Shown here: piece after piece, positions 1 to 27,111 of the stretch
Numbering within the stretch: the stretch's first letter is position 1
Layout of the letters: each line of letters begins with the position of its first letter
Origin: Alistipes shahii
GTDB taxonomy: Bacteria; Bacillota_I; Bacilli_A; RFN20; CAG-826
DNA: 64,000 nucleotides
NCBI GenBank assembly: GCA_963598795.1
Contig: CAVBUY010000002.1
Coordinates: forward strand, 700 to 64,699
Direction of reading: 5' to 3'
Position numbers and translations under genes: made by a program
Notes under the pieces: generated by a model
Databases searched by the model: none
Told to the model about the DNA's origin: nothing
What the model saw: only the letters and a program-made list of their open reading frames with translations

Positions 1-535
1 CGTCCTCAATAATGGCGTTGGAAACCTCGGCTTGTTCCAATGTGAGGGTATTATATGGAGAATATTTGAAAAGATTCGAATTTCTAAGTTCGTCCAATTC
101 GTGGTTTGCCAAATTCAATTTCTTTAATTTGGCCCATATGAAATCTATTTTATTCAAATACTTTGATCGCTCATAGTAATCATGTTTGAATGATTGGCCG
201 CCATTCATATTTTGCAACTTGAATTTTTTGTCGGCCCCACAAAGCTGTATTAAGTTCTGTTCCAAATCCAAAATGGCTGATTTGTTGAATTCATCATCAA
301 AAATAACATTAAAATCAGTCAGTTTTTGCCTATTTTCATTATTAAGATGCTGTTCCATTCTATAAACGGCGTTCTGCGTTTCGCCAATATAAAGTTCTTT
401 ATCATTGCTGATAAGATACACCACTGGCCAATTTTGAGATTTCTTCCTACTAGAAAGTTCTCTCTTCCCGTCTTGGGTAAACGAATATCTTGCCAATTCG
501 GTCTTTGGTTTGTTTTTTGTATTATTTACATCCAT
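1..535 (-). CDS. GIY-YIG nuclease-domain N-terminus of a larger protein (partial; continues beyond window start), possibly GIY-YIG + DUF2075 helicase-like
   Basis: Minus-strand ORF open to the window edge, so it is absent from the ORF track. My translation from ATG (complement of 533-535): MDVNNTKNKPKTELARYSFTQDGKRELSSRKKSQNWPVVYLISNDKELYIGETQNAVYRMEQHLNNE... The VVYLI..LYIGET..R..QH pattern is GIY-YIG-like. The downstream domain is not visible. Confidence 0.55.
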   Translation of the reverse strand, partial: MDVNNTKNKPKTELARYSFTQDGKRELSSRKKSQNWPVVYLISNDKELYIGETQNAVYRMEQHLNNENRQKLTDFNVIFDDEFNKSAILDLEQNLIQLCGADKKFKLQNMNGGQSFKHDYYERSKYLNKIDFIWAKLKKLNLANHELDELRNSNLFKYSPYNTLTLEQAEVSNAIIED

Positions 536-615
536 GGAATGTTTATAACATTTTTATAGCATAACGCAAGATGAGAAAGCGTCCGCTGCAAAGCGTTCGC
601 CAATGATTCAATAGG

Positions 616-1092
616 CTATTTTTTCCACTTCATAAACGTAAATCTAACCCCATTTTCATTTATTGGTTCGCTTTGCTCATAGCAAACAAACTTATCATCT
701 ATATTTGGGAAGAAAACCGTAGCTTTGCCGTCTACATCGACCTTGGTCATCCACACCTCGTCAACAATATCGATCGTGGATTTGTAAATTGAGGCTCCAC
801 CAATGATAAAAACGACATCGTCCTTCGAATATCCTCTTATCAAAGACATGAATTCATCCAACGACGAAGCATTTATGACCCCATCAGTTGGCTCATGGGA
901 AAGAACGATGTTAGTTCTATTCTTTAATGGTTTTCCGTTTGGCAACGACTTGAGAGTGTTTTTGCCCATGGCCACAACGTGACCTTGGGTGGACTCCTTA
1001 AAGAACCTCATATCGGTCGGCAAATGGAAAAGGAGATGGTTGTCTTTCCCTATGCCCAAGTTTTTGTCCACGTTAACGATTGCAATAATCAT
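616..1092 (-). CDS. folA: dihydrofolate reductase
   Basis: 158 aa. MIIAIVNVDKNLGIGKDNHLLFHLPTDMRFFKESTQG..VAMGKNT..SLP and IIGGASIY are typical DHFR motifs. 4-nt overlap with thyA stop. Confidence 0.9.
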   Translation of the reverse strand: MIIAIVNVDKNLGIGKDNHLLFHLPTDMRFFKESTQGHVVAMGKNTLKSLPNGKPLKNRTNIVLSHEPTDGVINASSLDEFMSLIRGYSKDDVVFIIGGASIYKSTIDIVDEVWMTKVDVDGKATVFFPNIDDKFVCYEQSEPINENGVRFTFMKWKK

Positions 1093-1919
1093 ATGGCCAC
1101 TTCGATCTTCTTGTCCAATTTCTCGAACTCATAGTCCTCTAGCTTAAAGCTATCGACGGTGAAATCGTAGAAATTGGTTATCGTCTTATCCATTATAAGC
1201 TTCGGGGCTTTATGCTGGGGTTTGGAAATTATCTCTTTCACTATCGGGACGTGCCTATCGTAAATGTGGGCGTCCGCGATTACGTGAACCAACTTCCCGG
1301 GCTTAAGGCCCGATACCTGGGCAAACATCATCAAAAGGATGGAATATTGAAGAACGTTCCAATTGTTCGCGGTAAGCATGTCGTTGCTTCTTTGGTTCAA
1401 TATGCCGTTTAAAGTGTCCCCGGTTACATTGAAAGTCATCGAATAAGCGCATGGATATAGTCCCATCTCATGCAAATCTTGAAAGTTATAAATATTGGTT
1501 ATCATCCTTCTTGAAGCCGGATCATTCTTTAAGGACCATAATATCCTATCGACCTGATCCATCTCCCCTTCCGGATAGATATGCTTGATGCCTAATTGGT
1601 AGCCATAAGCTTTGCCGATGGTCCCGTTTTCATCCGCCCAGGCATCCCAAATATGAGAATGAAGATCGCTGATCTTATTGGATTTCTTTTGCCATATCCA
1701 AAGCAATTCGTCGATGCAATTTTTAAAGGCCGTCCTTCTGATGGTCAATATGGGAAGTTCCTCTTGGAGATCGTAGGTATTGACTATGCAGAACTTCTTT
1801 ATGGTATGGGCCGGGGTTCCGTCTTCCCAATGGGGACGGACATTCAACTTCTCATCCGAAAAGCCATTCTCCAATATATCCTTCATGTTAGATACGAAAA
1901 TCTGATCGGCCCTAGACAT
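1089..1919 (-). CDS. thyA: thymidylate synthase (ThyA)
   Basis: ORF 1089..1958; likely start at MSRADQ (ATG 1917-1919). Motifs HWEDGTPAHT, LPILTIRR, CIDELLWIW, YPCAYSMTFNV, NQRSNDM. Confidence 0.92.
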   Translation of the reverse strand: MSRADQIFVSNMKDILENGFSDEKLNVRPHWEDGTPAHTIKKFCIVNTYDLQEELPILTIRRTAFKNCIDELLWIWQKKSNKISDLHSHIWDAWADENGTIGKAYGYQLGIKHIYPEGEMDQVDRILWSLKNDPASRRMITNIYNFQDLHEMGLYPCAYSMTFNVTGDTLNGILNQRSNDMLTANNWNVLQYSILLMMFAQVSGLKPGKLVHVIADAHIYDRHVPIVKEIISKPQHKAPKLIMDKTITNFYDFTVDSFKLEDYEFEKLDKKIEVAI

Positions 1920-2077
1920 AATCAATAACCCCCTATAAAAGATAAGGTATTCTAGCACTTATGAACAAAAACTTGTGGCATAAAATGCCAAAAGCCCCTT
2001 TAATCCTTGAATAGGATTAAGAAGGAACTATCATAGTATCGCTTCAAGCAAAGGGAGAAATCGTTACGAAATACGTA

Positions 2078-2398
2078 TTGGATCTATATTTCGAGAACAA
2101 CGACCATATGGCCCATATGTTCTCGACACTAAGGGAACATGGCTTCAACGGGGTGGTGTTCGCCACCACGTCCTTAAAGCACGCCATGCAAGGAGAAGAA
2201 AGCGACGAAAGGCATTTCTTGAATCTGGCCCATCTGGAATTGGCCAAGATGGAAGAGACGACTTTTGCCATCTTTATCTTAGAAGAAGACAAATTAGCCG
2301 AAATCAAAGAGATAATCAGGAAGGAAACCAATAACTTCAAGGACATGAAAGGCGGAATGTATTCCCGTCCCGTCCCTGATTTCGAAGGCTCTATCTAA
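2078..2398 (+). CDS. PII-like small signalling protein, DarA/PstA (cyclic-di-AMP receptor, DUF970)-like
   Basis: 106 aa with a TTG start. By eye it aligns to remembered B. subtilis DarA: HGFNGVVFATTS vs NFR.TKLATTGG, TTFAIFILEEDKLAEIKEIIRKE vs TTFL.GV.D..VDE.L..I, C-terminal GGMYSRPVPDFEG vs GGATVFV.PVD.F. The stop lies 2 nt before the antiporter ATG. Confidence 0.5.
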   Translation: MDLYFENNDHMAHMFSTLREHGFNGVVFATTSLKHAMQGEESDERHFLNLAHLELAKMEETTFAIFILEEDKLAEIKEIIRKETNNFKDMKGGMYSRPVPDFEGSI

Positions 2399-2400
2399 AT

Positions 2401-3735
2401 ATGAATAAGTTCCTATATTTGGCGATCGCCATTGCCATCGCCCTTCTTTCTTCGCGTTTGATGAAGAAAATAAAACTCCCTAACGTCACGGGATATCTAA
2501 TCACCGGCATTTTGGTGGGACCATATGTATTGGGCCTTGCCTTTAACGGCGGCAATTTCACCAACGATCCAAATAACAACGAAATCCTTTCCTTCGTCGA
2601 TTCTCTCTCTTGGATAAGCGACATCGCCTTGGGTTTTATCGCCTTTAGCATTGGGACTTCCTTTAAGCTATCGGCCTTAAAAATGGTAGGGAAGCGAGTG
2701 ATCGTAATCACTATATTCGAAGCCCTGGGTGGATCATTGCTGGTTTTATTGGGCCTTACCATCGCCCATTTCATTTGGCCAAGCTATATCGGTTGGGAAT
2801 TGGTGATAACATTGGGAGCCATCGCCGCCGCAACGGCCCCGGCCGCCACCTTGATGGTCGTAAAGCAATATAAGGCCAAAGGGCCATTGGTCAATACCTT
2901 GCTCCCGGTCGTGGCCTTGGATGACGCGGCGGCCTTAATATTGTTCGCCATACTATTCTCGGTGGCCAAAACCGTGGTTGGCGCTTCATCTTTCAACGTC
3001 TTGACTTCTTTAGTCAAACCTTTGTTGGAAATAATCTTCTCCTTGGGCTTTGGGGCCATAATAGGATTTGTGGTTTCCTTTGCCTGCGTCTTTTTCAAAT
3101 CGAGAGCCAATAGGATGATAATTTCCATTTGCTCCATCTTACTATGCCTTGGCCTATATAAGCTTTTTGGCACGATAAATCTATTTGGGGAAGGGATAGA
3201 ATTATCTTCCCTACTAATGTGCATGATGGTTGGCGCCGTCTTCATAAATGCCAGAAAGGACGCCTTGGGAACGTTTGATCGCATCGATCAATTCACCCCA
3301 CCGGTATTTATGTTGTTCTTCGTCCTTAGCGGGGCGGAATTGGATTTGACGATATTCGCCGACAAATTGGCTTTATATATCATAATCGCCGCCTTGTTCT
3401 ATGCGATATTCAGGGCTATCGGCAAGTGGTTGGGGGCCTTTACGGGGGCTTCTATCACCAAAGCCGAGCCAACGGTTAGGAAATACTTAGGCTTTACTTT
3501 GGTTCCGCAAGCGGGTGTAGCCATAGGGTTATCTACCACCGCATCAAGGGTCTTTGGCTCATCTTCCATCATCGAAGTCCAACAAGCCGGGGCGATGATA
3601 TTGGCGGTCGTTCTAACTTCAACCTTGGTCTATGAACTCGTTGGCCCGGTCATAACGAAAGTGGCCCTTATTAAAGCTGGGGAAATCCAAATCGAGCCAA
3701 AGAAAAAGAAAGAAGAAAATCAGATTAGCAAATAA
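2401..3735 (+). CDS. cation:proton antiporter (CPA2 / Na+/H+-exchanger family), no RCK domain
   Basis: 444 aa, about 12 hydrophobic segments. N-terminal LPNVTGYLITGILVGPYVLG is a typical Kef/CPA2 start. Short Lys-rich tail only. Confidence 0.8.
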   Translation: MNKFLYLAIAIAIALLSSRLMKKIKLPNVTGYLITGILVGPYVLGLAFNGGNFTNDPNNNEILSFVDSLSWISDIALGFIAFSIGTSFKLSALKMVGKRVIVITIFEALGGSLLVLLGLTIAHFIWPSYIGWELVITLGAIAAATAPAATLMVVKQYKAKGPLVNTLLPVVALDDAAALILFAILFSVAKTVVGASSFNVLTSLVKPLLEIIFSLGFGAIIGFVVSFACVFFKSRANRMIISICSILLCLGLYKLFGTINLFGEGIELSSLLMCMMVGAVFINARKDALGTFDRIDQFTPPVFMLFFVLSGAELDLTIFADKLALYIIIAALFYAIFRAIGKWLGAFTGASITKAEPTVRKYLGFTLVPQAGVAIGLSTTASRVFGSSSIIEVQQAGAMILAVVLTSTLVYELVGPVITKVALIKAGEIQIEPKKKKEENQISK

Positions 3736-3772: not shown

Positions 3773-5215
3773 CTATCTCTTCTTGCTATTTTCCTTAAGG
3801 ATCTCGCAGATCTTATATCCGCCATCGTAATGGCCTTCTTCTTTGAGCTTATTTATCCTATGGATCATAAATCGGAGCAAATCTTTGTCTTCGATTATGT
3901 TCTTTAAAGATCTTTGCATCGACTTAGCGTCTTCGCATTCTTTGAAGGCATCGCCCATTTCGTGACCAAACCTCCCTCCATAAACCTCGTGTCCGCCGAT
4001 ATGGCGCATGAAGAGCTTGGGGATTGGATAAAACACGAGCTCGCTTGGTTTGGTGATAAGCAAATCCGACACTCGCATCAAAAGGTTGGTGGAATATACG
4101 GCTTGGAAGATGTCTTTGTTGCAGAAACAATATATCCCTTCAAGGTGAGAGTCCCGTATATTATCGACGAACTTGAGGAATTCGTCGTACTTATCGAAAT
4201 AATCGACGCTATTTAAAGAAGGAATCTTCTTTTTCATGATTTCATGGACTTTCTTATGGTCTCCGAAATTAATAAGCAAGCAAACCTTGTTCTCCTTAAC
4301 GTATGGCAATAGGAATTTGACGATGGATATGAATAAATCCGTGCCGGCCCCGGCCCCGCCAACGGTTAGGAGAATTCTCAAAGGCTCGCCGTCACCAAGC
4401 CTTTTAAGCCTTCTTTCATTGTCTTCTTTGAGGTTGATTAAAAATTCATGATCGACATAGCAGCCTACTTCTTTGATGTCGGAATCCTTCATGCCCTTTA
4501 GTTCCTTTTTGGAAAAGCCGTTAAGCGTTTTATATCCATAATAAGCAAAAGGGGTTTGGACGGTATGAATGGCGCCTTCAGATAAATGGAGAGCCATAGG
4601 CCAATTGTCTGGTATGGCGTTTACGACGTTTGTCATTTTTCCATGTATCGCCCCTTGAGCTGGCCAAACGTGGGTAGCCACATAAGGAATATCCTTGGGG
4701 ATGTTTCTAAATATCGGAATTAGCAATTCGGCATTCTTTTGGTCTTTCGCGTTATATTCGATTTTCTTAAAGCCTTCCGAATTTAAGGGTTCCCAAACGA
4801 AATGATTAAAGAGCTTCGACTTTTGGGAGATTTTGCTGGCCAACGAATACATGTCGTTTTGCTTTCTGATCATCTTCGAGCCAGTCGCGTCAAAGGAGGC
4901 TAAATCAAGCCAATATGGATTATATCCCATGGCTTTGGCACAGCTTGCCAAGGCAATGGAAATCCTATAATGGCCGAAGCCCATCCTGATGTTTCCGACG
5001 ATTAAAGCGTTCTCGTCGAATTTTTCGTTTTTATCGGCAAAGACTACTTCTTTGACCCCTAAGTTCTTTAAAGTCTCGTTTTCCTTGAAGCCGATTTTAT
5101 AGTCAAAAGAAGAATCGTCTCCGAATTCCTTGATGAATTTCTTTTTGGATTTTTCAGCGCTTTTGATCGTTTTCTTATTTATCTTGTTTCCGAAAATCAC
5201 AGAGGTCTTATCCAT
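3773..5215 (-). CDS. GT28 / MGDG-synthase (UgtP)-like glycosyltransferase
   Basis: 480 aa. GNIRMGFGHYRISIALA resembles the GNGH motif of UgtP. LLTVGGAGAG and LITKPSEL resemble UgtP LLIMAGAHG and MITKPGGIT (remembered sequence). 19-nt overlap with the upstream GH36 gene. Confidence 0.5.
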   Translation of the reverse strand: MDKTSVIFGNKINKKTIKSAEKSKKKFIKEFGDDSSFDYKIGFKENETLKNLGVKEVVFADKNEKFDENALIVGNIRMGFGHYRISIALASCAKAMGYNPYWLDLASFDATGSKMIRKQNDMYSLASKISQKSKLFNHFVWEPLNSEGFKKIEYNAKDQKNAELLIPIFRNIPKDIPYVATHVWPAQGAIHGKMTNVVNAIPDNWPMALHLSEGAIHTVQTPFAYYGYKTLNGFSKKELKGMKDSDIKEVGCYVDHEFLINLKEDNERRLKRLGDGEPLRILLTVGGAGAGTDLFISIVKFLLPYVKENKVCLLINFGDHKKVHEIMKKKIPSLNSVDYFDKYDEFLKFVDNIRDSHLEGIYCFCNKDIFQAVYSTNLLMRVSDLLITKPSELVFYPIPKLFMRHIGGHEVYGGRFGHEMGDAFKECEDAKSMQRSLKNIIEDKDLLRFMIHRINKLKEEGHYDGGYKICEILKENSKKR

Positions 5216-9436: not shown

Positions 9437-9511
9437 AGTCTAGCACATCTTAAATAAAACGAGAGCCGGCGAAATCAAAAGGTTTGATGACTTTTTTTGC
9501 ACACCATTCCC

Positions 9512-9591
9512 GATTTACTACACATTTTATCGATATTTTTAGTAAGTAAAATTGATTTACTACACATTTTAATGTATATTTTAGTAAGTAA
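9512..9591. repeat. two tandem 38-bp copies (period 42 bp) with inverted TTACT / AGTAA ends; operator-like, upstream of fic
   Basis: 9512-9549 GATTTACTACACATTTTATCGATATTTTTAGTAAGTAA; 9554-9591 GATTTACTACACATTTTAATGTATATTTTAGTAAGTAA. The first 18 nt are identical, as are the last 13 nt; the 7 central positions all differ. Confidence 0.8.
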
Positions 9592-9604
9592 TGGGGTGCT
9601 AATA

Positions 9605-10645
9605 GTGAGAAAATTTGATTATTCTTTCTTAAAAATATCGATTTCCGGAAGGCTTGTGAACTTGGTTGGGATCATCTATGACATCAAAGGGAAGGAATCC
9701 GTCAGGCTTAAAGACAATCCCGAGCTATTTAAAGGTTTGAAAAACAAAGCAATCAGAGATTCCATCAAAGGCAGCAATGAAATAGAAAATATCCGCACAA
9801 CCAAAAAGAGAATCGATGAAATCGCAAATGGCGACAATAAGCCAATCAACCACCAAGAAGAAGAAATCGTCGGTTATCGAAATGTTTTAAATGACATCCA
9901 TAATCATAATTCCATTATCCATTTTGATAAAACAACCATCCTTTCCCTTCATAAATCTATGTTGGAAGTGTCCAAGGCCGAAAACCGAGGGCAATTCAAA
10001 AAAGAACCAAACATCATCACCGAAAGAGTTGACGGCAAAATGGTTCCAATTTTTGTTCCCGTCACGCCAGAAGAAACCGAGGAAGCTATCGATCAATTGA
10101 TATTGGCTTATCAAGAAGCCATATGCGACCCTAAGATAAATCCGTTGTTGCTAATCCCATGTGTCATCCTTGATTTCTTATGCATCCACCCATTTGATGA
10201 CGGAAACGGGCGAATATCAAGATTATTGACCCTATTGTTGCTTTATAAATCCGGCTTTGATATCGGAAGGTTCATATCCATCGAAAATGCTATAAATAAT
10301 AACAAAGACGAATATTACAGGGCTTTGATGGAATGTTCGAAAGGTTGGTCAGACAATGAAAATACTTATGAACCATTTATCCTTTATATGATTCGAATCA
10401 TCTATAAGTGTTATTCATTGTTAGATGAAAGCGTAATCTCATCAGCGGACAAAAAATTGACCAAATCCCAAAGGATTGAATATCTTTTAATGAACGCCTT
10501 AGTGCCTATATCCAAAAGAGACATCCTCGATAAATTGCCAGACATAAGCCAAAGAACCGTTGAAGCGGTTATCGGAAATTTGCTTGAGGAAGGCAAAATC
10601 ATCAAAATTGGTTCCTATAAGGATGCCACATATTATAGAAAGTGA
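9605..10645 (+). CDS. Fic family protein (AMPylase-type) with C-terminal winged-helix-like domain
   Basis: ORF 9497..10645. Fic motif HPFDDGNGRISR. Inhibitory-helix-like SNEIEN (S/TxxxE[G/N]) near the N-terminus. Start uncertain (ATG 9572 or GTG 9605) because the 5' part of the ORF is the AT-rich repeat region. Confidence 0.85.
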   Translation: MRKFDYSFLKISISGRLVNLVGIIYDIKGKESVRLKDNPELFKGLKNKAIRDSIKGSNEIENIRTTKKRIDEIANGDNKPINHQEEEIVGYRNVLNDIHNHNSIIHFDKTTILSLHKSMLEVSKAENRGQFKKEPNIITERVDGKMVPIFVPVTPEETEEAIDQLILAYQEAICDPKINPLLLIPCVILDFLCIHPFDDGNGRISRLLTLLLLYKSGFDIGRFISIENAINNNKDEYYRALMECSKGWSDNENTYEPFILYMIRIIYKCYSLLDESVISSADKKLTKSQRIEYLLMNALVPISKRDILDKLPDISQRTVEAVIGNLLEEGKIIKIGSYKDATYYRK

Positions 10646-10659
10646 GGGAAAGATTGATT

Positions 10660-10983
10660 ATGAACAAAAACGAAGAAGTTATGTTTGCTTTGACTAAGTT
10701 TCGCGACGAAAGGGATTGGAAGCAATTCCATACTGGCAAGAATTTGGCGGAATCAATATCCATTGAGGCCGCGGAACTGCTTGAAGCCTTCCAATGGAAG
10801 AACGAGGCCGACATAGAAAACATAAAGGAAGAATTGGCGGACGTATTGAATTATTGCTACCTTATGGCGGACCATTACGGTTTGGACCCCGATGAAATAT
10901 GCTTGGCTAAAATAAAAAGGAACGAAGAAAAATACCCAATAGAAAAAGCCAAAGGGACGGCGAAGAAATATAACGAACTATAA
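10660..10983 (+). CDS. MazG-like nucleotide pyrophosphohydrolase (small all-alpha NTP-PPase)
   Basis: FRDERDWKQFHTGKNLAESISIEAAELLEAFQW and EELADVLNY (EExxE / ExxD metal motifs). GAGGGA RBS overlaps the fic stop; ATG lies 14 nt after fic. Confidence 0.8.
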   Translation: MNKNEEVMFALTKFRDERDWKQFHTGKNLAESISIEAAELLEAFQWKNEADIENIKEELADVLNYCYLMADHYGLDPDEICLAKIKRNEEKYPIEKAKGTAKKYNEL

Positions 10984-11040: not shown

Positions 11041-11442
11041 TTATTCGGCTTTTGGGGCTTCTTCGACGGGTTTGGATTCAGCGTCCACCATATTTTCCTC
11101 AGCAACGGAATCGTTGATGATCTTAAGCCTTTGGGCGCGACGAGCCTCACGCTCGCTGGTGACATCGCGTTTTTTGGCAAAGACGTGCAAGCTTATGGCG
11201 GCGATCAAGGCTCCGGCCAAAATCAAGATGAAACCGATCCAGCGGAAGGTCAATAACCCATTGGAGCCCTGCAAGATCTTTTGCTGGGCCTGCAAGAGGT
11301 AATTGTCGCTATAGGCAACTTCCAAATAGTCGGCGATGAAACCGAGTATCATCAAGACCAAACCAGCCAGGCCGAACAAGGATTCGAAAACGATCCAGAA
11401 TATCTCCGGCTTGCTTAAGCTTTTCTTTTCCTTCATTTCCAT
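11041..11442 (-). CDS. hypothetical membrane protein (2 TM, charged C-terminal tail)
   Basis: 133 aa with two hydrophobic segments, then KKRDVTSEREARRAQRLK and an acidic tail. Lies 30 nt downstream of the 313-aa unknown on the same strand. Confidence 0.55.
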   Translation of the reverse strand: MEMKEKKSLSKPEIFWIVFESLFGLAGLVLMILGFIADYLEVAYSDNYLLQAQQKILQGSNGLLTFRWIGFILILAGALIAAISLHVFAKKRDVTSEREARRAQRLKIINDSVAEENMVDAESKPVEEAPKAE

Positions 11443-11472
11443 AAGCTAGTCCTTTCGAATTATATGTCGATA

Positions 11473-12414
11473 TTAGGCCTTGGGCATTCCCGTGCGAGGG
11501 TCGATTTCGGAAGGCTCTTCGTTGTTGGTTGCCTCTTCAGGTTTATGCTCGACCGGGGCGGAATTCACATCCGGCATTATCTTGTTGTTGCCGTTTTTGG
11601 CAATCTCCACCAATTCGTTGACCAATGGGAGATAGGTGGCTCTGAATTGAGGCTCCACCGCCTGGACATAGCTTCCGATTATTTGCTGGGTTTCGTTCAT
11701 GACCTGTCCGAAGTTCTTTCCTTCCGGAAGGTCTCTTCTTCCAGTCATATTCTCGACCAAGGAAACGACGGCGTCGGCGACTTTCATATAAGCAGCGTCC
11801 GTTATCTTGGAGTTGTTGTTTTTGACTTGCATCACCAAATTGAAGGTGGCGCCCAAATCGTTTCCGATGAAGCGGCTGGCCGGGGTTTCCTCGCCATTGG
11901 CTTCGCGACGGGCTTGGTTATAGTCGTTGAACAATTTGATCATCTCATTGCCCATGGTGAGATAGCAAACGGCGCGATAGAGCTTTTCTTCGTCCAAATC
12001 GGCTTTCTCTGCTTCAGCAACGTCAATGCCTTTGGATTTGGCGTCTTTGATGATGCCTTGGATCATGGCTTCGATGTTTTCGTGAATTGGGACAACGCCC
12101 TTAAAAATGGTTTGATGTTGGGCATGATCGACGCGGATGCCATCGGTTGCCACCTTGAGGATGGTGGAATCGTCGCCATAGACTTCGGCGTACCAATCGC
12201 GGATGGTTTTTTCCAATTTCTCTCCGTTTTCCCCGGAGTTGTTCAAAATGGAACGAAGCGGGGTGTTCTCGTCCAATTCAACCAAAATGGAGCGTTTTTT
12301 CTCGTTGTAGAGATTGACGTCATAGTTTTCCTTGATCAAAGCGTATTCAAGGGTGTCTCTGACCACGACCTTATAATGGAGCAAGGTGGTCAATACTTGG
12401 GTGATTTGATTCAT
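11473..12414 (-). CDS. hypothetical soluble protein, 313 aa, strongly codon-biased
   Basis: ORF 11473..12618; likely start MNQITQ (ATG complement of 12412-12414) behind a GAAGGAAA RBS. No motif I recognise. Contains no TTA, CTA or TCA codons, since the codon-aligned antisense frame is open across the whole gene. Confidence 0.7.
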   Translation of the reverse strand: MNQITQVLTTLLHYKVVVRDTLEYALIKENYDVNLYNEKKRSILVELDENTPLRSILNNSGENGEKLEKTIRDWYAEVYGDDSTILKVATDGIRVDHAQHQTIFKGVVPIHENIEAMIQGIIKDAKSKGIDVAEAEKADLDEEKLYRAVCYLTMGNEMIKLFNDYNQARREANGEETPASRFIGNDLGATFNLVMQVKNNNSKITDAAYMKVADAVVSLVENMTGRRDLPEGKNFGQVMNETQQIIGSYVQAVEPQFRATYLPLVNELVEIAKNGNNKIMPDVNSAPVEHKPEEATNNEEPSEIDPRTGMPKA

Positions 12415-12768
12415 GCATTTCCTTCTTTCTTGATTTAGAGTTTCTCCTCTAACGGGCAGATTCTTCAAACCAATGAAGCGTCCTTTAGACGCAGGTATTC
12501 CAACAACGAAAAGAGATATCGGTTGTGGCAATGTAAATATTATCCGTAAAACGATGACTTTATCAAGATATAGTGCATCATCTTGATGTTTGGATGATTT
12601 GCAAGGGAAAGCGGGCAAAAATTCCTAGGCAAGTCTTTAAAGCCTCATTCATAACTATAACAAAGGTTTTTTGCAATATAGGGATGTTTGAAAAGATTAA
12701 TAATTGCAAAAATGAAATTATAGTTTCAAAATTAAAATAATATAATGGATTACGAGGAGGCTGATGCT

Positions 12769-13086
12769 ATGTCATTGTTTCAAGAAAGGGTAAAAGAGTT
12801 AATGATTAGAGAAAACGTAAATCAAAAAAAGCTTGCGGAAAAATCGGGGATTTCCGAAGCTTCACTATCCAGATATTTAAATGGATCGACACAACCGAGA
12901 ATAGATGTCCTCATCAACATAGCGAACGCTTTTGAAGTGGACGTCAATACGTTGACGGAACCCATCGCATCGCAGGTAGGCAGAAACACTGCGTTTGAAC
13001 AGACATACAGTCTTGTCACCAGAAACAAATCCAAACTCACAGAAGAGCAAAAAAGAAAAATCATCATGGCACTCATAGAAAAATGA
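12769..13086 (+). CDS. XRE-family helix-turn-helix transcriptional regulator
   Basis: NQKKLAEKSGISEASLSRYLNGSTQPRIDVLINIANAFEVDVNTL is a canonical HTH_3. The preferred start ATG 12769 is preceded by GAGGAGG; the ORF track start is 12745. Confidence 0.85.
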   Translation: MSLFQERVKELMIRENVNQKKLAEKSGISEASLSRYLNGSTQPRIDVLINIANAFEVDVNTLTEPIASQVGRNTAFEQTYSLVTRNKSKLTEEQKRKIIMALIEK

Positions 13087-13790
13087 TTATGACGAGCAGA
13101 TACGACGAATTAGACAAAACGGCTTTGCAAATTCTCATGGATTATTCCAATGCGCAATTTCCGCTTGATTTAATAAATCTTTGCGAACGGCTTAGGATAA
13201 AGCTTGTCCCCTATTCCTCACTTGGAAAATCAAAGCTTTCAGAGCTGAGGTTAACGGCCAACAATGGAGAATTGACAGACGGATTTTCCATCTTGCTTGG
13301 GAATACCGATTGTGATGGTTATTCCGCTTATACTTATTACAACGACGACAAGCCGATAGATCTTAGCGGAAGGGTATGCTTCACTATTTGCCACGAAATC
13401 AAGCATGTTGTATTTGGAGAAATTGATCCACGCAAAGTGGAAGAAACTGAAGCCGATCATTTCGCGAGGTTTCTCCTTGCGCCCACCCCTTTGCTAATAG
13501 TTGAAAAATATGACTCAATCTCAGACATCCATGCGGATTTCGGTCTTACAATGTCGGCAGCATACAATGCCTTGGATGCGAGAAACAATAGAATTAAAAA
13601 ACATGGAGAAACTCTGTTTGACTACGAGAACGATTTTATAGATTGGTTTTTGGAAAATAACAAAAAACGCCGTTCCGGAGAGAACGACGCAATTCAGAAC
13701 TATGACAGTTCCTTAAGCACTTATTGTTATAGCCCTGACACGATAGAAAATCAACAAAATACGGGAGGCTATGACAATGCCGATATATAG
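13083..13790 (+). CDS. ImmA/IrrE-family (COG2856) zinc metallopeptidase
   Basis: 235 aa. HEIKH (HExxH) followed by EADHFARFLLAP, the typical ImmA/IrrE signature. ATGA overlap with the XRE gene. Confidence 0.85.
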   Translation: MIMTSRYDELDKTALQILMDYSNAQFPLDLINLCERLRIKLVPYSSLGKSKLSELRLTANNGELTDGFSILLGNTDCDGYSAYTYYNDDKPIDLSGRVCFTICHEIKHVVFGEIDPRKVEETEADHFARFLLAPTPLLIVEKYDSISDIHADFGLTMSAAYNALDARNNRIKKHGETLFDYENDFIDWFLENNKKRRSGENDAIQNYDSSLSTYCYSPDTIENQQNTGGYDNADI

Positions 13791-14481
13791 TAATAATGAT
13801 TATGTAAAAATTATTAGGCCGATACCAAACGACTGGCCAAAAGACATAGAAGGAATACCCTTCATTAAAAAAAGCGAAATAGACATATCCGATATCAATA
13901 ATGGAAAATGGCTGATCAGCGTTTCGAATATAAACAAAGCGGCCAAGAACTTGGATCGCAAAATAGCGCATTGTTTTAAATTCGATAGCGAACTCAACAG
14001 GTTGTATCAAAACCCGTTCATGACTTTGAGAAAGATGGCAAAGTGCTACGCGGCGTCAACTCTCGATATTAGCATGCACGAGCAAATGCAACGCGCCCAA
14101 ATAATTGACGCTACCTTCAAAAACCGCTGGTCTGGAGTTTGGCTTCAAATGAATGGATTTGATAGAGTCATCGTGACTGTTGGCTGGGTGAAACCCGATA
14201 CTTATGACATATGTTTTTCGGGAATAGAAAATGGCACGGCGTTAATGATATCGACACTCGGCGCTTGCAACGAAGATTCTAAAGTTGACTTCGTCCAAGG
14301 CTATAAGGAAATGAGAAAACGTTTTCCAGATTCACAAGTTATATGCGTTGGCAAGCGACTAGAAGGGATGGACGAAAATATATGCTATGTTGACTATGAT
14401 CAGTCATTTGGAAATTTCGACTCCAAACAAGATTATTGGCAAGCGAAATTATTCAATTGGGATTTTTCGGAGGCAAAATAA
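13771..14481 (+). CDS. DUF4417-like protein (function unknown)
   Basis: 236 aa. The pattern CFKFDSELNRLYQNP ... STLDISMH ... QIIDATFKNRWSGVWLQMNGFDRVIVTVGW ... ALMISTLG matches my memory of DUF4417. Overlaps the ImmA stop by 20 nt. Confidence 0.5.
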   Translation: MTMPIYSNNDYVKIIRPIPNDWPKDIEGIPFIKKSEIDISDINNGKWLISVSNINKAAKNLDRKIAHCFKFDSELNRLYQNPFMTLRKMAKCYAASTLDISMHEQMQRAQIIDATFKNRWSGVWLQMNGFDRVIVTVGWVKPDTYDICFSGIENGTALMISTLGACNEDSKVDFVQGYKEMRKRFPDSQVICVGKRLEGMDENICYVDYDQSFGNFDSKQDYWQAKLFNWDFSEAK

Positions 14482-14482
14482 G

Positions 14483-14875
14483 ATGGCATCTAGAGGAAGC
14501 AAGGCCAAAAACGGCCACATCACCATGAATGAGTATTCAACTGAACGTGTAACCGAGAATGGCGTGAAAATATTGACGGGGAATGGAAATAACCACTCTC
14601 TTCCAGACTATTCACATACACCAAATTCCGTCTATGCTAAGCTCAATAAATACGGTCTTCTGCACGAAATGAGATTTTACGACGCTAAAGGAAATATCGT
14701 TTTGGAAATCGCATATCATAGCGAGCCTAGTCTGAACAACGGCAATAAAGAGCCTGTCGCTCATTATCACGTTTATGATGGTCTAATGCGGTCAAAAGCC
14801 GAAAAAATCACAATGGAAATCAAAGATAAATACGCCGAATACTTAAAGGAGTTTGATTTGTATGATAAATGCTAA
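14483..14875 (+). CDS. hypothetical small basic protein, His-rich core (toxin-like position)
   Basis: 130 aa from ATG 14483, with GGAGG 10 nt upstream, starting 1 nt after the DUF4417 stop. Core LPDYSHTPNSVYAKLNKYGLLHEMRFYDAKGNIVLEIAYHSEP...PVAHYHVYDG. No family assigned. Confidence 0.5.
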   Translation: MASRGSKAKNGHITMNEYSTERVTENGVKILTGNGNNHSLPDYSHTPNSVYAKLNKYGLLHEMRFYDAKGNIVLEIAYHSEPSLNNGNKEPVAHYHVYDGLMRSKAEKITMEIKDKYAEYLKEFDLYDKC

Positions 14876-15188
14876 TTTGGAACAATTTTTGGACACCGGT
14901 TGGTTCAACGAGGCGACGCTTTACCTGAACGGTTTTACTTATTGGTGCGAGGGATACTGGGATTTTAAAAAAGAAAAACCAATGCACTTTTTCGTCCGTA
15001 AATACCCATCCGAAGTCGTAGATGGAATATATACGAAGCCTTTGAAAAATGCCGTTGAAGAAGTCGTCTTTGATATTTGTGGACGTGATGAGAATGAAGT
15101 TAAAACAGAATTTCTCAAAGCAAAAATATTTGATGGCAAGTCTTTTTGGGAAATCGAGAACGTCATCGCTTGGTACGACGAAATATAA
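14862..15188 (+). CDS. hypothetical small acidic protein (immunity-like position)
   Basis: 108 aa from ATG 14862, with AAGGAG 10 nt upstream. Overlaps the preceding gene by 14 nt. Trp/Phe-rich: MINANLEQFLDTGWFNEATLYLNGFTYWCEGYW... Confidence 0.45.
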   Translation: MINANLEQFLDTGWFNEATLYLNGFTYWCEGYWDFKKEKPMHFFVRKYPSEVVDGIYTKPLKNAVEEVVFDICGRDENEVKTEFLKAKIFDGKSFWEIENVIAWYDEI

Positions 15189-15371
15189 ACGAAATAGTCA
15201 TAATCCAGGGAATGGCATTCATTAAAAATAATTTTGTTCGCAATCGGTCATTTAACAAACGCCAACAATAGACGTTACTAGAACTTTGATGAGGCTTACC
15301 CGATTTTAGTTTCAAAAGATTAGCCACAATTAAAACGGAAAAACACATCAAAAAAAGAAGAGCCAAATGCT

Positions 15372-16544: not shown

Positions 16545-16690
16545 CCTAGTAACAAAAAGCCTTCCCACCGGCGGGAGGCTCAGCTTATGAGATCCCTTCA
16601 AACGTCGTTCCGGATGTGGGGTCCGGCTAGAACAAGCACTTACTGCTATAGCAGAGTTGCTAGCGTTCTTTCTCAGTTCTCATGAACGCT
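16545..16690 (-). promoter_or_regulatory. SAM-riboswitch-like leader (SAM-I clan core) with intrinsic terminator, upstream of metK
   Basis: Minus-strand RNA: P1 UCAUGAGA...UCUCAUAA encloses AGCAAC, hairpin CUGCUAUAGCAG, GUGCUUGUUCUAGC and hairpin CCGGACCCCACAUCCGG. It is followed by CCUCCCGCCGGUGGGAAGG + CUUUUUGUU. The P2 region looks shorter than classical SAM-I. Confidence 0.45.
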
Positions 16691-16721
16691 TCTTGACGTC
16701 TGACTTTTGTCGAAAGGGATT

Positions 16722-18544: not shown

Positions 18545-19846
18545 TTAGCCAAGCAAACTGCTCAAGTTCAATGTGATGGATGGACGAACGCCAACATAAT
18601 CATTAGTGGTGACTTGACTAACCATTGACCCTGCCCAAGAAACGGCATTCACATAGTTGCCAGTGGTGTCATCAATGGGAGAACGGGTCCAATAAGGCGC
18701 ACCTCCGTCTTGGAAGAAACACTTGTTGGCAATCGCATAATCGCTGACCTTGGATTTTCTGACATTTGAGAAATTATCGTCCGCAGGGAAGCCATATGCC
18801 GTATTCAAATAATCTTTATAGCTCAGTAAATAGACGTTGTCTTTTGTATTCTCACTAGCGTAAGGATTTGTGTCAGATTCCGTCGTTGCTGCCGAATTAT
18901 CTACATCGGTAGGAGTGATATAAGAATTATTCAAGCCAAAGGCTGTCTTATAGAAATTCTTATTTAGCCATTTTCTGATCGTTGAATTTTCGTAGGTATG
19001 CTCGTCTTTGGTGAAATTGTACGTCGAAGTATCCAACACAATGTTTGAGAGGAGCGAATAAGTTCCGCTCGAGGTTGCTAAGATCTTCCAAGTGATTGTT
19101 TCGCATTTGAACCAATAATTGGTGCCTGTTTTAATCTCGGTTCCATCGTTGAAAGTATAGTTGGAGCCATAATTGTACGGATTGGCAGCGATCCTGTCAT
19201 AATATTCACCGTTATAAAGATACCAGCCGTTTTTTTCGTAGGTAGTCAAGGCATTTAAAGCGGTAACGGTATCGGCATCGCTGACATAAGTCTGGGGATA
19301 CAAACCATAAGTTATCGTCTTGCTGGCACTGTCGAGAACCGGCAACATGCCAAGCGCTTCTTGTTTTTGAATGCTTGGGACTTCGCTATCGACATACGAA
19401 TATTCGCAGACCGTGCAAACATGGGTCGTATAGCCACCTTCGTCTTCGGTTGGTTGGGTCACTTTTTCTTCGAACGTGTGTTCGGCTTTTCCGTCGACCA
19501 CGTCATGCCCGCAGGTGGCGGCATGCCAGTGATATGTCCCATCCTTCGACCAAGTGTTCATATTGAAGGTGTGCTCATGCGAGGAACCACTATCCGAGGA
19601 ACCACCATGCGAGGAACCACTATCCGAGGAACCACCATTCGAACCATCTTTAAGGCCTAAGCCAAGGCCCAAGCCCAAAACTAAGGCAAGGATAGCTGCT
19701 ATGCACACGGAAACGTAGATGATGCTGTTTTTCTTTCCGTGTTTCTCGACGAACTTGTTGATAAAGACAATTCCGCCTTTCTTTTTTTCTTCTTCGTCAA
19801 CGGATTCGGACGTCTCGTTGACGGCTTCTTTTTTCTCTTCTTCCAT
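18545..19846 (-). CDS. membrane-anchored surface protein with Cys/His-rich module and DUF6273-like C-terminal domain
   Basis: 433 aa. Lys/Glu-rich cytoplasmic head, TM IIYVSVCIAAILALVLGLGLGLGL, GGSSDSGSSH x2, HTF..W..DGTYHWH..CGH...C.VC. C-terminal ITWKILA, STIRKWLNKNFYKTAFG, YLLSYKDY, YWTRSP, VGVRPSITL (remembered DUF6273 pattern). Confidence 0.6.
   Translation of the reverse strand: MEEEKKEAVNETSESVDEEEKKKGGIVFINKFVEKHGKKNSIIYVSVCIAAILALVLGLGLGLGLKDGSNGGSSDSGSSHGGSSDSGSSHEHTFNMNTWSKDGTYHWHAATCGHDVVDGKAEHTFEEKVTQPTEDEGGYTTHVCTVCEYSYVDSEVPSIQKQEALGMLPVLDSASKTITYGLYPQTYVSDADTVTALNALTTYEKNGWYLYNGEYYDRIAANPYNYGSNYTFNDGTEIKTGTNYWFKCETITWKILATSSGTYSLLSNIVLDTSTYNFTKDEHTYENSTIRKWLNKNFYKTAFGLNNSYITPTDVDNSAATTESDTNPYASENTKDNVYLLSYKDYLNTAYGFPADDNFSNVRKSKVSDYAIANKCFFQDGGAPYWTRSPIDDTTGNYVNAVSWAGSMVSQVTTNDYVGVRPSITLNLSSLLG
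19576..19635. repeat. perfect 2 x 30-bp tandem repeat (4 x 15-bp sub-units) inside the surface-protein gene
   Basis: CATGCGAGGAACCACTATCCGAGGAACCAC at 19576-19605 and 19606-19635. Encodes GGSSDSGSSHGGSSDSGSSH on the minus strand. Confidence 0.9.
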
Positions 19847-26661: not shown

Positions 26662-26736
26662 GGATGCTTAGCTCAGCGGGAGAGCATCGCCCTTACAAGG
26701 CGGGGGTCACAGGTTCGAACCCTGTAGCATCCACCA
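26662..26736 (+). tRNA. tRNA-Val(UAC), CCA encoded
   Basis: Hand fold: GGATGCT/AGCATCC acceptor, anticodon stem TCGCC/GGCGG, loop CTTACAA, T-arm ACAGG-TTCGAAC-CCTGT. Confidence 0.9.
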
Positions 26737-26771
26737 ATAGCCTTAATAGCGTGCGGTGACCTTAAATCAGT

Positions 26772-26855
26772 GGGTGAATAGCGAAGTGGCCAAACGCGGC
26801 TGACTGTAAATCAGCTCCTCAGGGTTCGGTGGTTCAAATCCATCTTCACCCACCA
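26772..26855 (+). tRNA. tRNA-Tyr(GUA), CCA encoded
   Basis: GGGTGAA/TTCACCC acceptor, anticodon stem GCTGA/TCAGC, loop CTGTAAA, long variable arm. Confidence 0.9.
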
Positions 26856-26865
26856 TTTATTTTAT

Positions 26866-26940
26866 TGGGGTGTAGCCAAGCGGTAAGGCAACAGACTTTG
26901 ACTCTGTCATGCACTGGTCCGATCCCAGTCACCCCAGCCA
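26866..26940 (+). tRNA. tRNA-Gln(UUG), CCA encoded, unusual T-loop (TCCGATC)
   Basis: TGGGGTG/CACCCCA acceptor, anticodon stem ACAGA/TCTGT, loop CTTTGAC, T-arm ACTGG-TCCGATC-CCAGT. Confidence 0.85.
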
Positions 26941-26946
26941 GCCTTC

Positions 26947-27021
26947 CTCCCGTTAGCTCAGTGGTAGAGCACTTGACTTTTAATCAAGGGGTCGACAGTT
27001 CGAGCCTGTCACGGGAGACCA
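26947..27021 (+). tRNA. tRNA-Lys(UUU), CCA encoded
   Basis: CTCCCGT/ACGGGAG acceptor, anticodon stem CTTGA/TCAAG, loop CTTTTAA, T-arm GACAG-TTCGAGC-CTGTC. Confidence 0.9.
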
Positions 27022-27024
27022 ATC

Positions 27025-27111
27025 GCCCGAGTGGTGGAATGGTAGACGCAGAGGACTTAAAATCCTCCGGATGCGTAATCCGTACCGGTTCGAGTCCGGT
27101 CTTGGGCACCA
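27025..27111 (+). tRNA. tRNA-Leu(UAA), CCA encoded
   Basis: GCCCGAG/CTTGGGC acceptor, anticodon stem GAGGA/TCCTC, loop CTTAAAA, long variable arm, T-arm CCGG-TTCGAGT-CCGG. Confidence 0.9.

Follow-up and report, generated by a model that had tools for sequence, protein, structure and literature searches.

Five tightly packed open reading frames (ORFs) lie on the + strand at positions 12769-15188 of a stretch of contig CAVBUY010000002.1 (Alistipes shahii; GTDB lineage Bacillota_I, Bacilli_A, RFN20, CAG-826), 64,000 nucleotides (nt) long and referred to below as the window. They encode, in this order, an XRE-family helix-turn-helix (HTH) repressor similar to CapH and ImmR (105 amino acids, aa; 12769-13086), a predicted M78 zinc metalloprotease of COG2856 similar to ImmA, IrrE and CapP (235 aa; 13083-13790), a DUF4417 protein (234 aa; 13777-14481, with an alternative start at 13771), an all-beta protein of 130 aa with two C-terminal helices (g4; 14483-14875) and an acidic, Trp-rich protein of 108 aa (g5; 14862-15188). 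A predicted promoter/operator region, recognised from inverted repeats and an alignment with four related cassettes, precedes them on the same strand (12668-12760). Five closely joined genes on one strand had been described here in an earlier reading of the window (the original prediction), and the ORF list and the junctions bear this out. We propose that this 2.5-kb cassette is a self-contained, horizontally shuffled module of two parts, i.e., a repressor-protease switch and a payload formed by the triad DUF4417-g4-g5, and we tentatively read the whole as a conflict module.

The XRE and M78 genes share a 4-nt ATGA overlap (13083-13086), DUF4417 and g4 are joined at +1 nt (g4 start 14483, with GGAGG 9 nt upstream), and g5 starts at 14862 inside the end of g4 (-14 nt, with AAGGAG 10 nt upstream). 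These junctions stand as originally described. The distance of -20 nt between M78 and DUF4417 holds only from ATG 13771, whereas ATG 13777, preceded by GGAGG at a distance of 8 nt and preferred in public gene calls (234 aa), gives -14 nt. The XRE gene had been placed at 12745, and this start has to be revised. The gene almost certainly begins at 12769, because GGAGG lies 9 nt upstream of this position and gene callers give the 105-aa form, because nucleotide homology with two related cassettes (L014 and L015) begins exactly at 12769, and because the conserved -10 box TATAAT (12741-12746) overlaps ATG 12745, which probably falls upstream of the transcript.

The GC content of the cassette is 39.9%, compared to 48.3% in metK and 43.1% in the 64-kb window; the lower value relative to metK had been anticipated from spot counts, to which the measurements are close. 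The small gene pair at the 3' end had been called basic/acidic, which is correct for g5 (pI 4.6) and not for g4, which is neutral (pI 7.06). No terminator was found 3' of g5. In comparisons of the window with five related cassettes (L006, L007, L013, L015 and L016), in which every copy is intact, synonymous sites are saturated in all five genes (pS 0.68-0.94) while dN is 0.07-0.3. As dN is far under the saturated dS throughout, these are five functional coding genes, all under strong purifying selection. This, together with the homologue clusters described below, confirms that the small ORFs g4 and g5 are real and conserved.

Switch and payload proteins

The XRE protein matches HTH_3 in Pfam with 49.7 bits against a cut-off of 23 (E 3.7e-13), the PADLOC model capH over its full length (2e-12, model positions 3-92 of 103) and the N-terminus of the PADLOC model RmrA (3e-8). 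It combines HTH_3 with a short C-terminal region and an adjoining COG2856 protease gene (4-nt overlap), and its dN is 0.07-0.15 with saturated dS. The M78 protein has HEIKH at residues 104-108, the downstream E..A...P motif of COG2856 and a clade-specific Q/N-rich C-terminal tail. Its score for Peptidase_M78 (PF06114) is 20.2 bits, below the cut-off of 22, and it also matches phrog_87 metalloprotease (1e-5), RmrA (3e-4) and capP (4e-7, only at model positions 5-175 of 242). Across 31 proteins encoded at the same position HExxH is invariant and the E, A and P are nearly invariant (at least 90%), 25 of the 31 match PF06114 (best E 2e-14), and dN/dS of the M78 protein is 0.11-0.14. Both signatures had been considered unambiguous; the HTH is indeed clear, and the protease motif is conserved in a window protein that stays below the Pfam threshold. 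The covariation of XRE and M78 across loci is nearly perfect (r=0.95), which is what a protease and the protein it cleaves should show. By analogy with ImmA/ImmR, IrrE/DdrO and CapP/CapH, M78 may cleave its partner XRE on a signal, a proposal for which this covariation is the support at hand. As a predicted switch, this half of the cassette is well grounded by analogy.

The conserved approximately 50 nt 5' of XRE form a sigma-70-like promoter. Palindromic TTGCAA hexamers are found at 12671-12676 and 12704-12709, and a near-palindrome, GAAATTATAGTTTC, occupies the -35 position (12714-12727), followed by the -10 box mentioned above and by the ribosome-binding site GGAGG at 12755-12759. The element AATTGCAAAAATGAAATTGCAATTTCA...TAnAAT is conserved in the alignment with the four related cassettes. 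In the relatives, a perfect 14-bp palindrome, GAAATTGCAATTTC, encloses the -35 TTGCAA, 17 nt from TAnAAT, and the window version of this palindrome has one mismatch. The palindrome over the -35 box is the obvious candidate for the operator to which the repressor would bind.

The DUF4417 assignment of the third gene was borne out by a match to PF14386 of 94.2 bits against a cut-off of 28.9 (E 8.9e-27, model positions 21-182 of 183). PF14386 is carried by all 71 homologue clusters of the protein, which also matches phrog_940 (6.8e-25). The invariant residues in our alignment A3 include D97, K62, D144 and TVGW134-137. The AlphaFold2 (AF2) model (pLDDT 90) has a beta/alpha fold resembling a partial TIM barrel, for which tRNA-guanine transglycosylase (TGT) was the most consistent Foldseek match in the PDB (prob 0.9-0.98, TMq 0.40-0.50, E 0.02-0.1), with other TIM barrels also scoring. 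In BFVD, phage queuine tRNA-ribosyltransferase-like proteins of the DpdA type came next after three DUF4417 relatives (prob 0.87-1.0). The comparison of A3 with E. coli Tgt by hhalign was negative (probability 0.2%; the query sequence is 97.8% identical to the deposited tgt), and the protein had no match among PDB sequences at E up to 10. Membership of DUF4417 in the TGT family by sequence is therefore rejected, and the resemblance of the modelled fold to TGT/DpdA is weak.

Full-length homologues of g4 form 45 clusters with 40-80% identity, and mean column identity is 68% (alignment A1). The N-terminal M-x-S-R-G is conserved, with S-R-G invariant, as are Y51, E62, R64, E75, H79, E81, H94 and H96, among which Y51, H79, H94 and H96 are invariant in A1; in a broader alignment (A6) M1, P43, Y53, R66, H96 and H98 are nearly invariant (at least 90%). 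The invariant His, Glu, Arg and Tyr residues fall on alternate positions of predicted beta strands. The AF2 model (pLDDT 88) is all-beta, with six strands and two short C-terminal helices, and its comparison with PDB folds gave only low-TM matches (beta domains of SdgB, GtfA and TarM, and Rhs shells) that are not interpretable. Relatives of solved structure were not found by sequence for g4 or the g4 superfamily, and neither g4 nor g5 has a model in Pfam, NCBIfam, PHROGs or PADLOC. When a g4 profile was run against 1.84 billion representative proteins, 180 matches were obtained; among the best 150 of these, the full-length relatives are nearly all stand-alone proteins of approximately 105-160 aa, the longest having 228 aa. 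One natural g4-g5 fusion was found (P0368).

When g4 homologues were scanned singly against Pfam, Ntox24 (PF15529) was the single family met repeatedly. It was found as sub-threshold matches in 5 of 29 homologues (best E 0.015) and in 5 of 79 (best E 4.4e-4), i.e., in ten sequences in total. The close homologue P0073 reaches 15.2 bits against a gathering score of 24 (E 0.027), and its residues 40-98 align co-linearly to positions 13-71 of the 91 positions of the Ntox24 hidden Markov model. Ntox24 has been described as an all-beta domain with conserved Y, H and H, predicted to be a metal-independent endoRNase, which occurs in polymorphic toxins, including phage MuF fusions, and also in stand-alone novel type II toxin-antitoxin (TA)-like pairs with unknown antitoxin (Zhang et al. 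2012, PMC3482391). The all-beta fold with conserved Tyr and His residues is also seen in the model and the alignments of g4. We consider g4 a candidate Ntox24-like nuclease or toxin, which is a lead and not a statement of membership.

The homologues of g5 are more numerous (106 full-length clusters, 40-80% identity; mean column identity 61% in alignment A2) and share the motifs QFLDTGW, YWCE, FDGKSFWE.E and AWYDE. In the loci examined g5 always follows g4 directly, with an overlap of 4-14 nt. Extra g4-g5 pairs are present in four loci (L024, 288-1050; L026, 2194-2935; L037, 10707-13675; L052, 5038-7353), either as up to three tandem pairs or as a pair upstream of DUF4417, and extra g5 copies are present in L016 and L066. 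Such behaviour is typical of toxin-immunity units, by analogy. In some of the loci DUF4417 is frameshifted (L050, L052 and L053), and the first pair of L037 contains a run of N. The Trp motifs of g5 resemble the published Imm53 signature "W, WE, PGW, W", although this is only a lead, with no Pfam match to Imm53 among 33 g5 homologues. Among PDB sequences, g5 matched only a designed repeat protein, which is not meaningful. We consider g5 a candidate neutraliser or immunity partner of g4.

Recurrence, mobility and genomic contexts

Loci were collected in a pattern-based, and thus pattern-limited, scan of 185,579 genomes with one genome per species. This gave 42 species-level loci in Bacilli (including RF39/Anaeroplasma-like lineages), Clostridia and Negativicutes, mostly from gut and rumen metagenome-assembled genomes and with one cultured strain, Schwartzia succinivorans DSM 10502 (L034). 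Profile searches of all locus ORFs showed that the order DUF4417-g4-g5 is kept in 42 of 42 loci. With profiles made from the upstream ORFs of the loci, 33 of approximately 39 informative loci were seen to have XRE and M78 next to the triad and in the same orientation, the pair being upstream in 29, fused in one protein in 1 and downstream in 3. A fused, RmrA-like XRE-M78 protein replaces the pair in L030 (389 aa), L066 (368 aa) and L071 (345 aa). The neighbourhood of XRE, ImmA and DUF4417 thus recurs, and the switch is linked to the three downstream genes and not to an integrase, as had been suspected from the window. The term obligate operon, used for the five genes, fits the tight coupling in the clade of the window and does not extend to other lineages, where M78 and DUF4417 are separated by 76-174 nt instead of overlapping or where the pair lies downstream (the 3 loci above).

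Of the two halves of the cassette, the switch has diverged much more. Mean pairwise identity is 0.27-0.29 for the regulator pair versus 0.48-0.54 for the triad, whose members covary at r 0.63-0.86. The triads of L018 and L016 are both 64% identical to that of the window, whereas their regulators are 76/64% and 17/17% identical, respectively. The regulator pair is thus, by these sequence comparisons, exchanged independently of the triad. Nucleotide similarity of the window to its nearest relatives runs from 12692-12702 (starts in L006, L013 and L018) to 15187-15194, and to the next group from 13761-13777 to 15182, with unrelated flanks in every genome compared. Since the similarity is bounded from approximately 50 nt 5' of XRE to the g5 stop, i.e., exactly the promoter and the five genes, the cassette moves as a unit, in agreement with the original view of five genes as one unit.

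Part of the payload is shared with phages. DUF4417 is found in 460 phage records, mostly of mycobacteriophages. In temperate phages of Firmicutes it lies just upstream of terminase, namely in Streptococcus phage A25 and the Javan series, Dorea phage DO134P1 and Roseburia phage Jekyll, where it is followed by a gene of approximately 130 aa that overlaps it in A25, Javan258 and DO134P1 and is separated from it by a 90-aa ORF in Jekyll (L073, 3986-4997; L075, 2848-3911; L074, 2860-3908; L076, 2091-3396). The N-terminus of these g4-like proteins is MGGRG in DO134P1 and Jekyll, as in distant g4 homologues, and MSDKG in A25 and Javan258 as annotated. The g4 superfamily profile scores 38 bits with the protein of DO134P1 and 26 bits with that of A25; those of Javan258 and Jekyll have no g4 profile match and are linked through 55-63% identity to the DO134P1 protein. 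By tblastn, a g4-like gene is present in 30 phage records. Identity between the DUF4417 proteins of phages and of the cassette is approximately 28-32%, and g5 is absent from the phage loci. Since DUF4417 and g4 are shared with phages that have no g5, they would be the older pair, and g5 and the switch would be additions on the side of bacteria and elements. In Javan258 and other Javan phages the gene at L074 2860-3531 is labelled "DNA modification methylase"; it has the same size and position as the A25 DUF4417 gene and is itself a DUF4417 gene (E 4e-25 against the cassette-subfamily profile), so that the label was rejected as independent evidence of DNA modification.

The absence of mobility genes, reported for the window, does not hold for the family. 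In the window, Pfam searches of the flanks (approximately 600-21500) found housekeeping genes, Fic and a MazG-like gene only, with no mobility or phage genes, and phmmer and a motif scan of the whole window, both of limited sensitivity, found no serine recombinase, tyrosine integrase or relaxase. Some relatives adjoin a serine recombinase. In the most abundant one (L055-L060; 412 blocks of the collection list it) the cassette and a serine recombinase are arranged head-to-head within a mobilisable element of approximately 9 kb that also encodes a Mob_Pre relaxase and a D5-type primase; a serine recombinase is also found beside the cassette in the L069/L070 lineage and 2.8 kb upstream of it in L052. 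The setting of ImmR/ImmA, inside an element with integrase and transfer or phage genes, is therefore present in L055-L060 and L069/L070 and not in the window. Homologous cassettes do not always sit inside prophages or integrative and conjugative elements (ICEs), as several copies have purely housekeeping flanks, e.g., beside haem biosynthesis genes in L067 and beside Lon and asparagine synthase in L071. TA genes occur as neighbours of the cassette in relatives (HepT/MNT, PIN, HipBA and Fic/RelB).

No match to g4 or g5 was found in PLSDB plasmids by tblastn, and a pattern scan of IMG/VR gave no match to the g4 and DUF4417-subfamily profiles. The g5 search of IMG/VR gave two distant matches only (L065 and L066). 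The first, at 9995-10279 of a 41-kb contig that ends 3 nt beyond it, is an orphan g5 homologue (30% identity) right after a tyrosine integrase and has no g4 upstream; should g4 prove to be a defence toxin, such a g5 could be a counter-measure carried by a phage. The second is a 5-kb fragment, surfaced only via its g5, that encodes at 93-3025 an XRE-M78 fusion (368 aa) together with DUF4417, g4 and a tandem pair of g5 paralogues, facing genes for a ParB-DNA-methylase and a small terminase on the other strand. A full XRE-M78-DUF4417-g4-g5 cassette is also present in an unverified GenBank entry labelled 'Bacteriophage sp.' (MT835546; L063). The cassette is flanked there by genes for phosphoglucomutase, DNA polymerase III delta', PSP1 and a protein with an S1 domain, and because of these housekeeping genes the entry is evidently bacterial and probably a chromosome fragment. 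In L071 (6273-9450) and L072 (5297-8474) a fused, RmrA-like XRE-M78 protein (345 aa) is followed by a DUF3368 (PIN-like) gene and then by the triad, an order that places a RosmerTA-type pair and the triad in one string.

The upstream side of the window contains DHFR, ThyA, a sugar-utilisation cluster, NUDIX-YunG, Fic overlapping a MazG-like gene, and two uncharacterised minus-strand genes. The Fic-domain gene (382 aa as listed) overlaps the MazG-like pyrophosphohydrolase gene by 4 nt (9497-10983; GC 36-41%). A homologous Fic gene is found approximately 2 kb from the cassette in the unrelated L006, and a Fic/RelB pair lies near the cassette in L061. Fic and MazG may thus represent another conflict module within this islet. 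The minus-strand genes (11041-12618; GC 47-49%) encode a membrane protein of 133 aa and a protein of 313-381 aa without family match, and they accompany the cassette in contigs of the same species (L001 and L002). Downstream lie metK with its SAM riboswitch and then an ECF transporter component. No Rfam family was found within or around the cassette. The full-length SAM-I riboswitch upstream of metK (16599-16702, minus strand) lies just under the gathering score of Rfam (42.6 against 44.4 bits, E 1.3e-8). Because of this riboswitch the metK TTG start at 16601 is wrong, and metK is likely the 386-aa form starting near 16532. Elsewhere in the window, a DUF6937/DUF6938 protein beside a melibiase-like glycosidase and an MFS transporter (3773-5215, minus strand), a DUF6273 protein (18545-19846, minus strand) and five tRNA genes for Val, Tyr, Gln, Lys and Leu (26662-27111, + strand) appear to be ordinary chromosomal content.

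Proposed function and rival explanations

We tentatively propose, by analogy, that the cassette is a conflict module of the RosmerTA-like or "three-component TA" kind with a phage-derived payload. The gene order and its conservation, the exchange of the switch, the operator-like palindrome, the domains of genes 1-3 and the phage pair of DUF4417 and g4 are read directly from the sequences, whereas we infer that the repressor is cleaved and on what signal, that g4 is toxic and g5 neutralises it, what DUF4417 catalyses, and whether phages are affected. XRE would bind the palindromic operator over the -35 box and hold the operon low, until the cognate M78 would cleave it on a signal of stress or invasion (DNA damage or single-stranded DNA, ssDNA, or a phage or mobile-element cue). 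The DUF4417 enzyme would act jointly with g4, and g5, which is confined to the bacterial cassette, would bind and restrain g4 so that the cell tolerates the DUF4417 and g4 pair. Firing of the switch, or an upset g4:g5 balance, would let DUF4417 and g4 attack nucleic acid. Growth would stop or the invader would be blocked, which would make the module either an abortive-infection system or one that addicts the host to the element.

The Ntox24 matches, the acidic and coupled g5, the duplications of g4-g5 and the phage pair, which stands in late-gene position without g5, suggest a toxin and its neutraliser, and the Fic, MazG and TA neighbours, the carriage on mobilisable elements and the low GC suggest a setting of conflict. 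Several observations weigh against this proposal. The g4 of the window itself gave no match to Ntox24 even at E=1, and the Ntox24 match is below the Pfam threshold in every sequence tested. A Pfam scan of 33 g5 homologues found no match to known immunity or antitoxin families, at E up to 0.1 the defence-system models of PADLOC do not match genes 3-5, and in the contexts examined the cassette has no large defence system of a recognised kind beside it. An enzyme of three subunits would account equally well for the g4-g5 fusion and for DUF4417 being present throughout. Besides, co-transcription of g4 and g5 from one promoter leaves the release of toxicity unexplained, and the switch is co-directional with the payload, unlike the divergent CapH/CapP.

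The main rival, a nucleic-acid modification module, we consider unlikely. DUF4417 and g4 would exchange or modify a base in DNA or tRNA and g5 would tune or target them, so that under a stress-responsive switch the DNA of the host or the element would be protected, by anti-restriction or an epigenetic mark, or self would be marked. The nearest Foldseek matches point in this direction (TGT in the PDB and phage queuine tRNA-ribosyltransferase-like proteins in BFVD). The match of the folds is nonetheless weak, with E 0.005-0.1, TM no higher than 0.5 and 8-13% identity; comparable scores are reached by other TIM barrels, and the comparisons with Tgt and with PDB sequences were negative. ParB-DUF4417 fusions of phages parallel ParB-methyltransferase fusions, and the position of DUF4417 and g4 directly before terminase in A25, Javan258, DO134P1 and Jekyll fits a role before packaging; genes for the synthesis of preQ0 or other precursors do not lie alongside the cassette. 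In its co-evolution the triad resembles the parts of a single machine, to which the g4-g5 fusion can be added, whereas duplicated g4-g5 pairs without DUF4417 are hard to square with an enzyme subunit. Less likely again, and in our view quite improbable, is a damage-inducible repair operon of the IrrE/DdrO type, whose payload would repair or process nucleic acid without any role in conflict. Characterised XRE/M78 pairs respond to DNA damage, a glycosylase-like DUF4417 fold is conceivable, and several copies have housekeeping flanks only. The patchy spread (42 species in the pattern-limited scan of 185,579 genomes), the low GC, flanks that differ in each genome, carriage on mobilisable elements and swapped regulator pairs are not what such an operon would lead one to expect, and the same applies to the frequent TA neighbours and to the presence of two of the three payload genes in phages.

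We give a similarly low standing to the immunity region of a small integrative mobilisable element, in which XRE/M78 would be ImmR/ImmA, the triad would serve excision, replication or transfer, and the copy in the window would be a stranded remnant. This is what the L055-L060 arrangement with its recombinase, relaxase and primase resembles, together with the recombinases of L069/L070 and L052. Most copies, however, have no recombinase within 8-10 kb, the copies tested are all intact and show purifying selection, homology does not extend past the cassette, and the searches for g4 in IMG/VR (by pattern scan) and in the plasmids of PLSDB were empty. A decayed lysogeny module of a prophage, or polymorphic toxin-immunity cargo formed by g4 and g5, is effectively ruled out. 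XRE/COG2856 pairs are typical of prophage immunity regions and the cassette of L066 lies beside genes for a ParB-methylase and a small terminase, but the genes are intact and constrained, the flanks in the window hold no phage genes, the IMG/VR scans for g4 and for relatives of the DUF4417 subfamily were empty, and MT835546 is evidently bacterial; the prophage remnant was rejected on these grounds. As to polymorphic cargo, also rejected, g4 is small and stand-alone among the best 150 of 180 matches and never fused there to secretion or Rhs/LXG carriers, and g4 and g5 are conserved (68% and 61% column identity) rather than hypervariable. The question whether the downstream pair is variable cargo is answered in the negative as well, since g4 and g5 co-evolve with DUF4417 at the r values given above.

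A further reading, which we regard as improbable, is that DUF4417 and g4 form an unrecognised two-protein enzyme with a TGT/DpdA-like barrel that modifies nucleic acid or excises bases and is used by temperate Firmicute phages at packaging. Captured by bacteria and small elements and provided with the inhibitor g5 and a cleavable-repressor switch, it would have become an inducible immune or addiction weapon. If true, this would mean a new activity for a widespread phage DUF and a new effector class of systems controlled by repressor and protease. DUF4417, which is present in hundreds of phage genomes including those of mycobacteriophages and Streptococcus pyogenes phages, gains a first functional context, with g4 as a constant partner, g5 as a candidate inhibitor and a regulator of the damage or infection type. 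If the payload proves toxic or protective, it would add a family of defence or TA systems characteristic of Firmicutes from gut and rumen, a group that E. coli- and Bacillus-based screens cover poorly, and it would exemplify how a late-gene module of phages can be taken over on the side of the host. As the cassette is small (2.5 kb) and self-contained, these hypotheses are cheap to test.

Comparison with known systems

The closest known systems are those in which an XRE repressor and an M78 peptidase stand beside a payload. RosmerTA (RmrT/RmrA) comprises anti-phage TA systems (Millman et al. 2022; Ernits et al. 2023) that, like the cassette, place an HTH and an ImmA-type zinc peptidase beside a payload of unknown or variable family and are found on mobile elements and phages; the fused proteins of L030, L066 and L071 have the RmrA-like form. 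RosmerTA has two genes and one toxin, whereas the cassette has three co-evolving payload genes, and RmrA unites the HTH and the peptidase in one protein, whereas the pair in the window is separate, with each member matched by RmrA models. No PADLOC model, among which the RmrT models should be, matches the payload of the cassette. In CapH/CapP a small XRE repressor, whose C-terminal region serves oligomerisation, is cleaved by an M78 peptidase, inducing an adjacent immune operon (Lau et al. 2022; Calloji et al. 2026). The full-length match to capH and the match of the peptidase part to capP link the cassette to this pair, which lies upstream of its operon on the opposite strand, while the cassette pair is co-directional and translationally coupled to the payload. 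CapP has a C-terminal GAF domain and an ssDNA groove; the match of the cassette M78 to capP covers model positions 5-175 of 242. The payloads of CapH/CapP (CBASS, DISARM, DUF2188 and DUF3892) are unrelated to that of the cassette.

The ImmR/ImmA pair of ICEBs1 and the corresponding prophage modules also consist of adjacent XRE and COG2856 genes, and some relatives of the cassette adjoin an element recombinase; unlike ICEBs1, the window has no integrase or element. In the "three-component TA" predicted by Makarova et al. (2009), Xre and COG2856 control a toxin, PIN or RelE, in the place of which the cassette has DUF4417, g4 and g5. Gene 3 is a clear member of the family of the phage DUF4417 proteins (PF14386; phrog_940), which are either stand-alone or fused to ParB, and g4 is shared with Streptococcus, Dorea and Roseburia phages. 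The phage genes differ from the cassette in lying before terminase without g5 and the switch, and the mycobacteriophage versions have no g4 either. Ntox24 domains are partnered with Imm50/Imm53 immunity proteins (Zhang et al. 2012, PMC3482391), whereas g4 has sub-threshold Ntox24 matches only and is not part of a large secreted protein among the matches listed, and g5 has no Imm50/Imm53 match.

The cassette as such is not classified in the libraries searched. PADLOC 2.0 has no model for genes 3-5 and no DUF4417 model match, NCBIfam has no family for these genes, and Pfam and PHROGs recognise only the DUF4417 domain within the payload, which thus has no functional model in any of the four. The DUF4417 papers in the searchable literature do not deal with defence, and the payload, its constant trio and its link to phages are not described there. 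What had been predicted as an undescribed system is therefore new in its payload and not in its control, since a repressor-protease switch placed before a payload is a known architecture and its service to a payload is already established. Overall, more than 30 species join this kind of switch to an unvarying payload of three genes.

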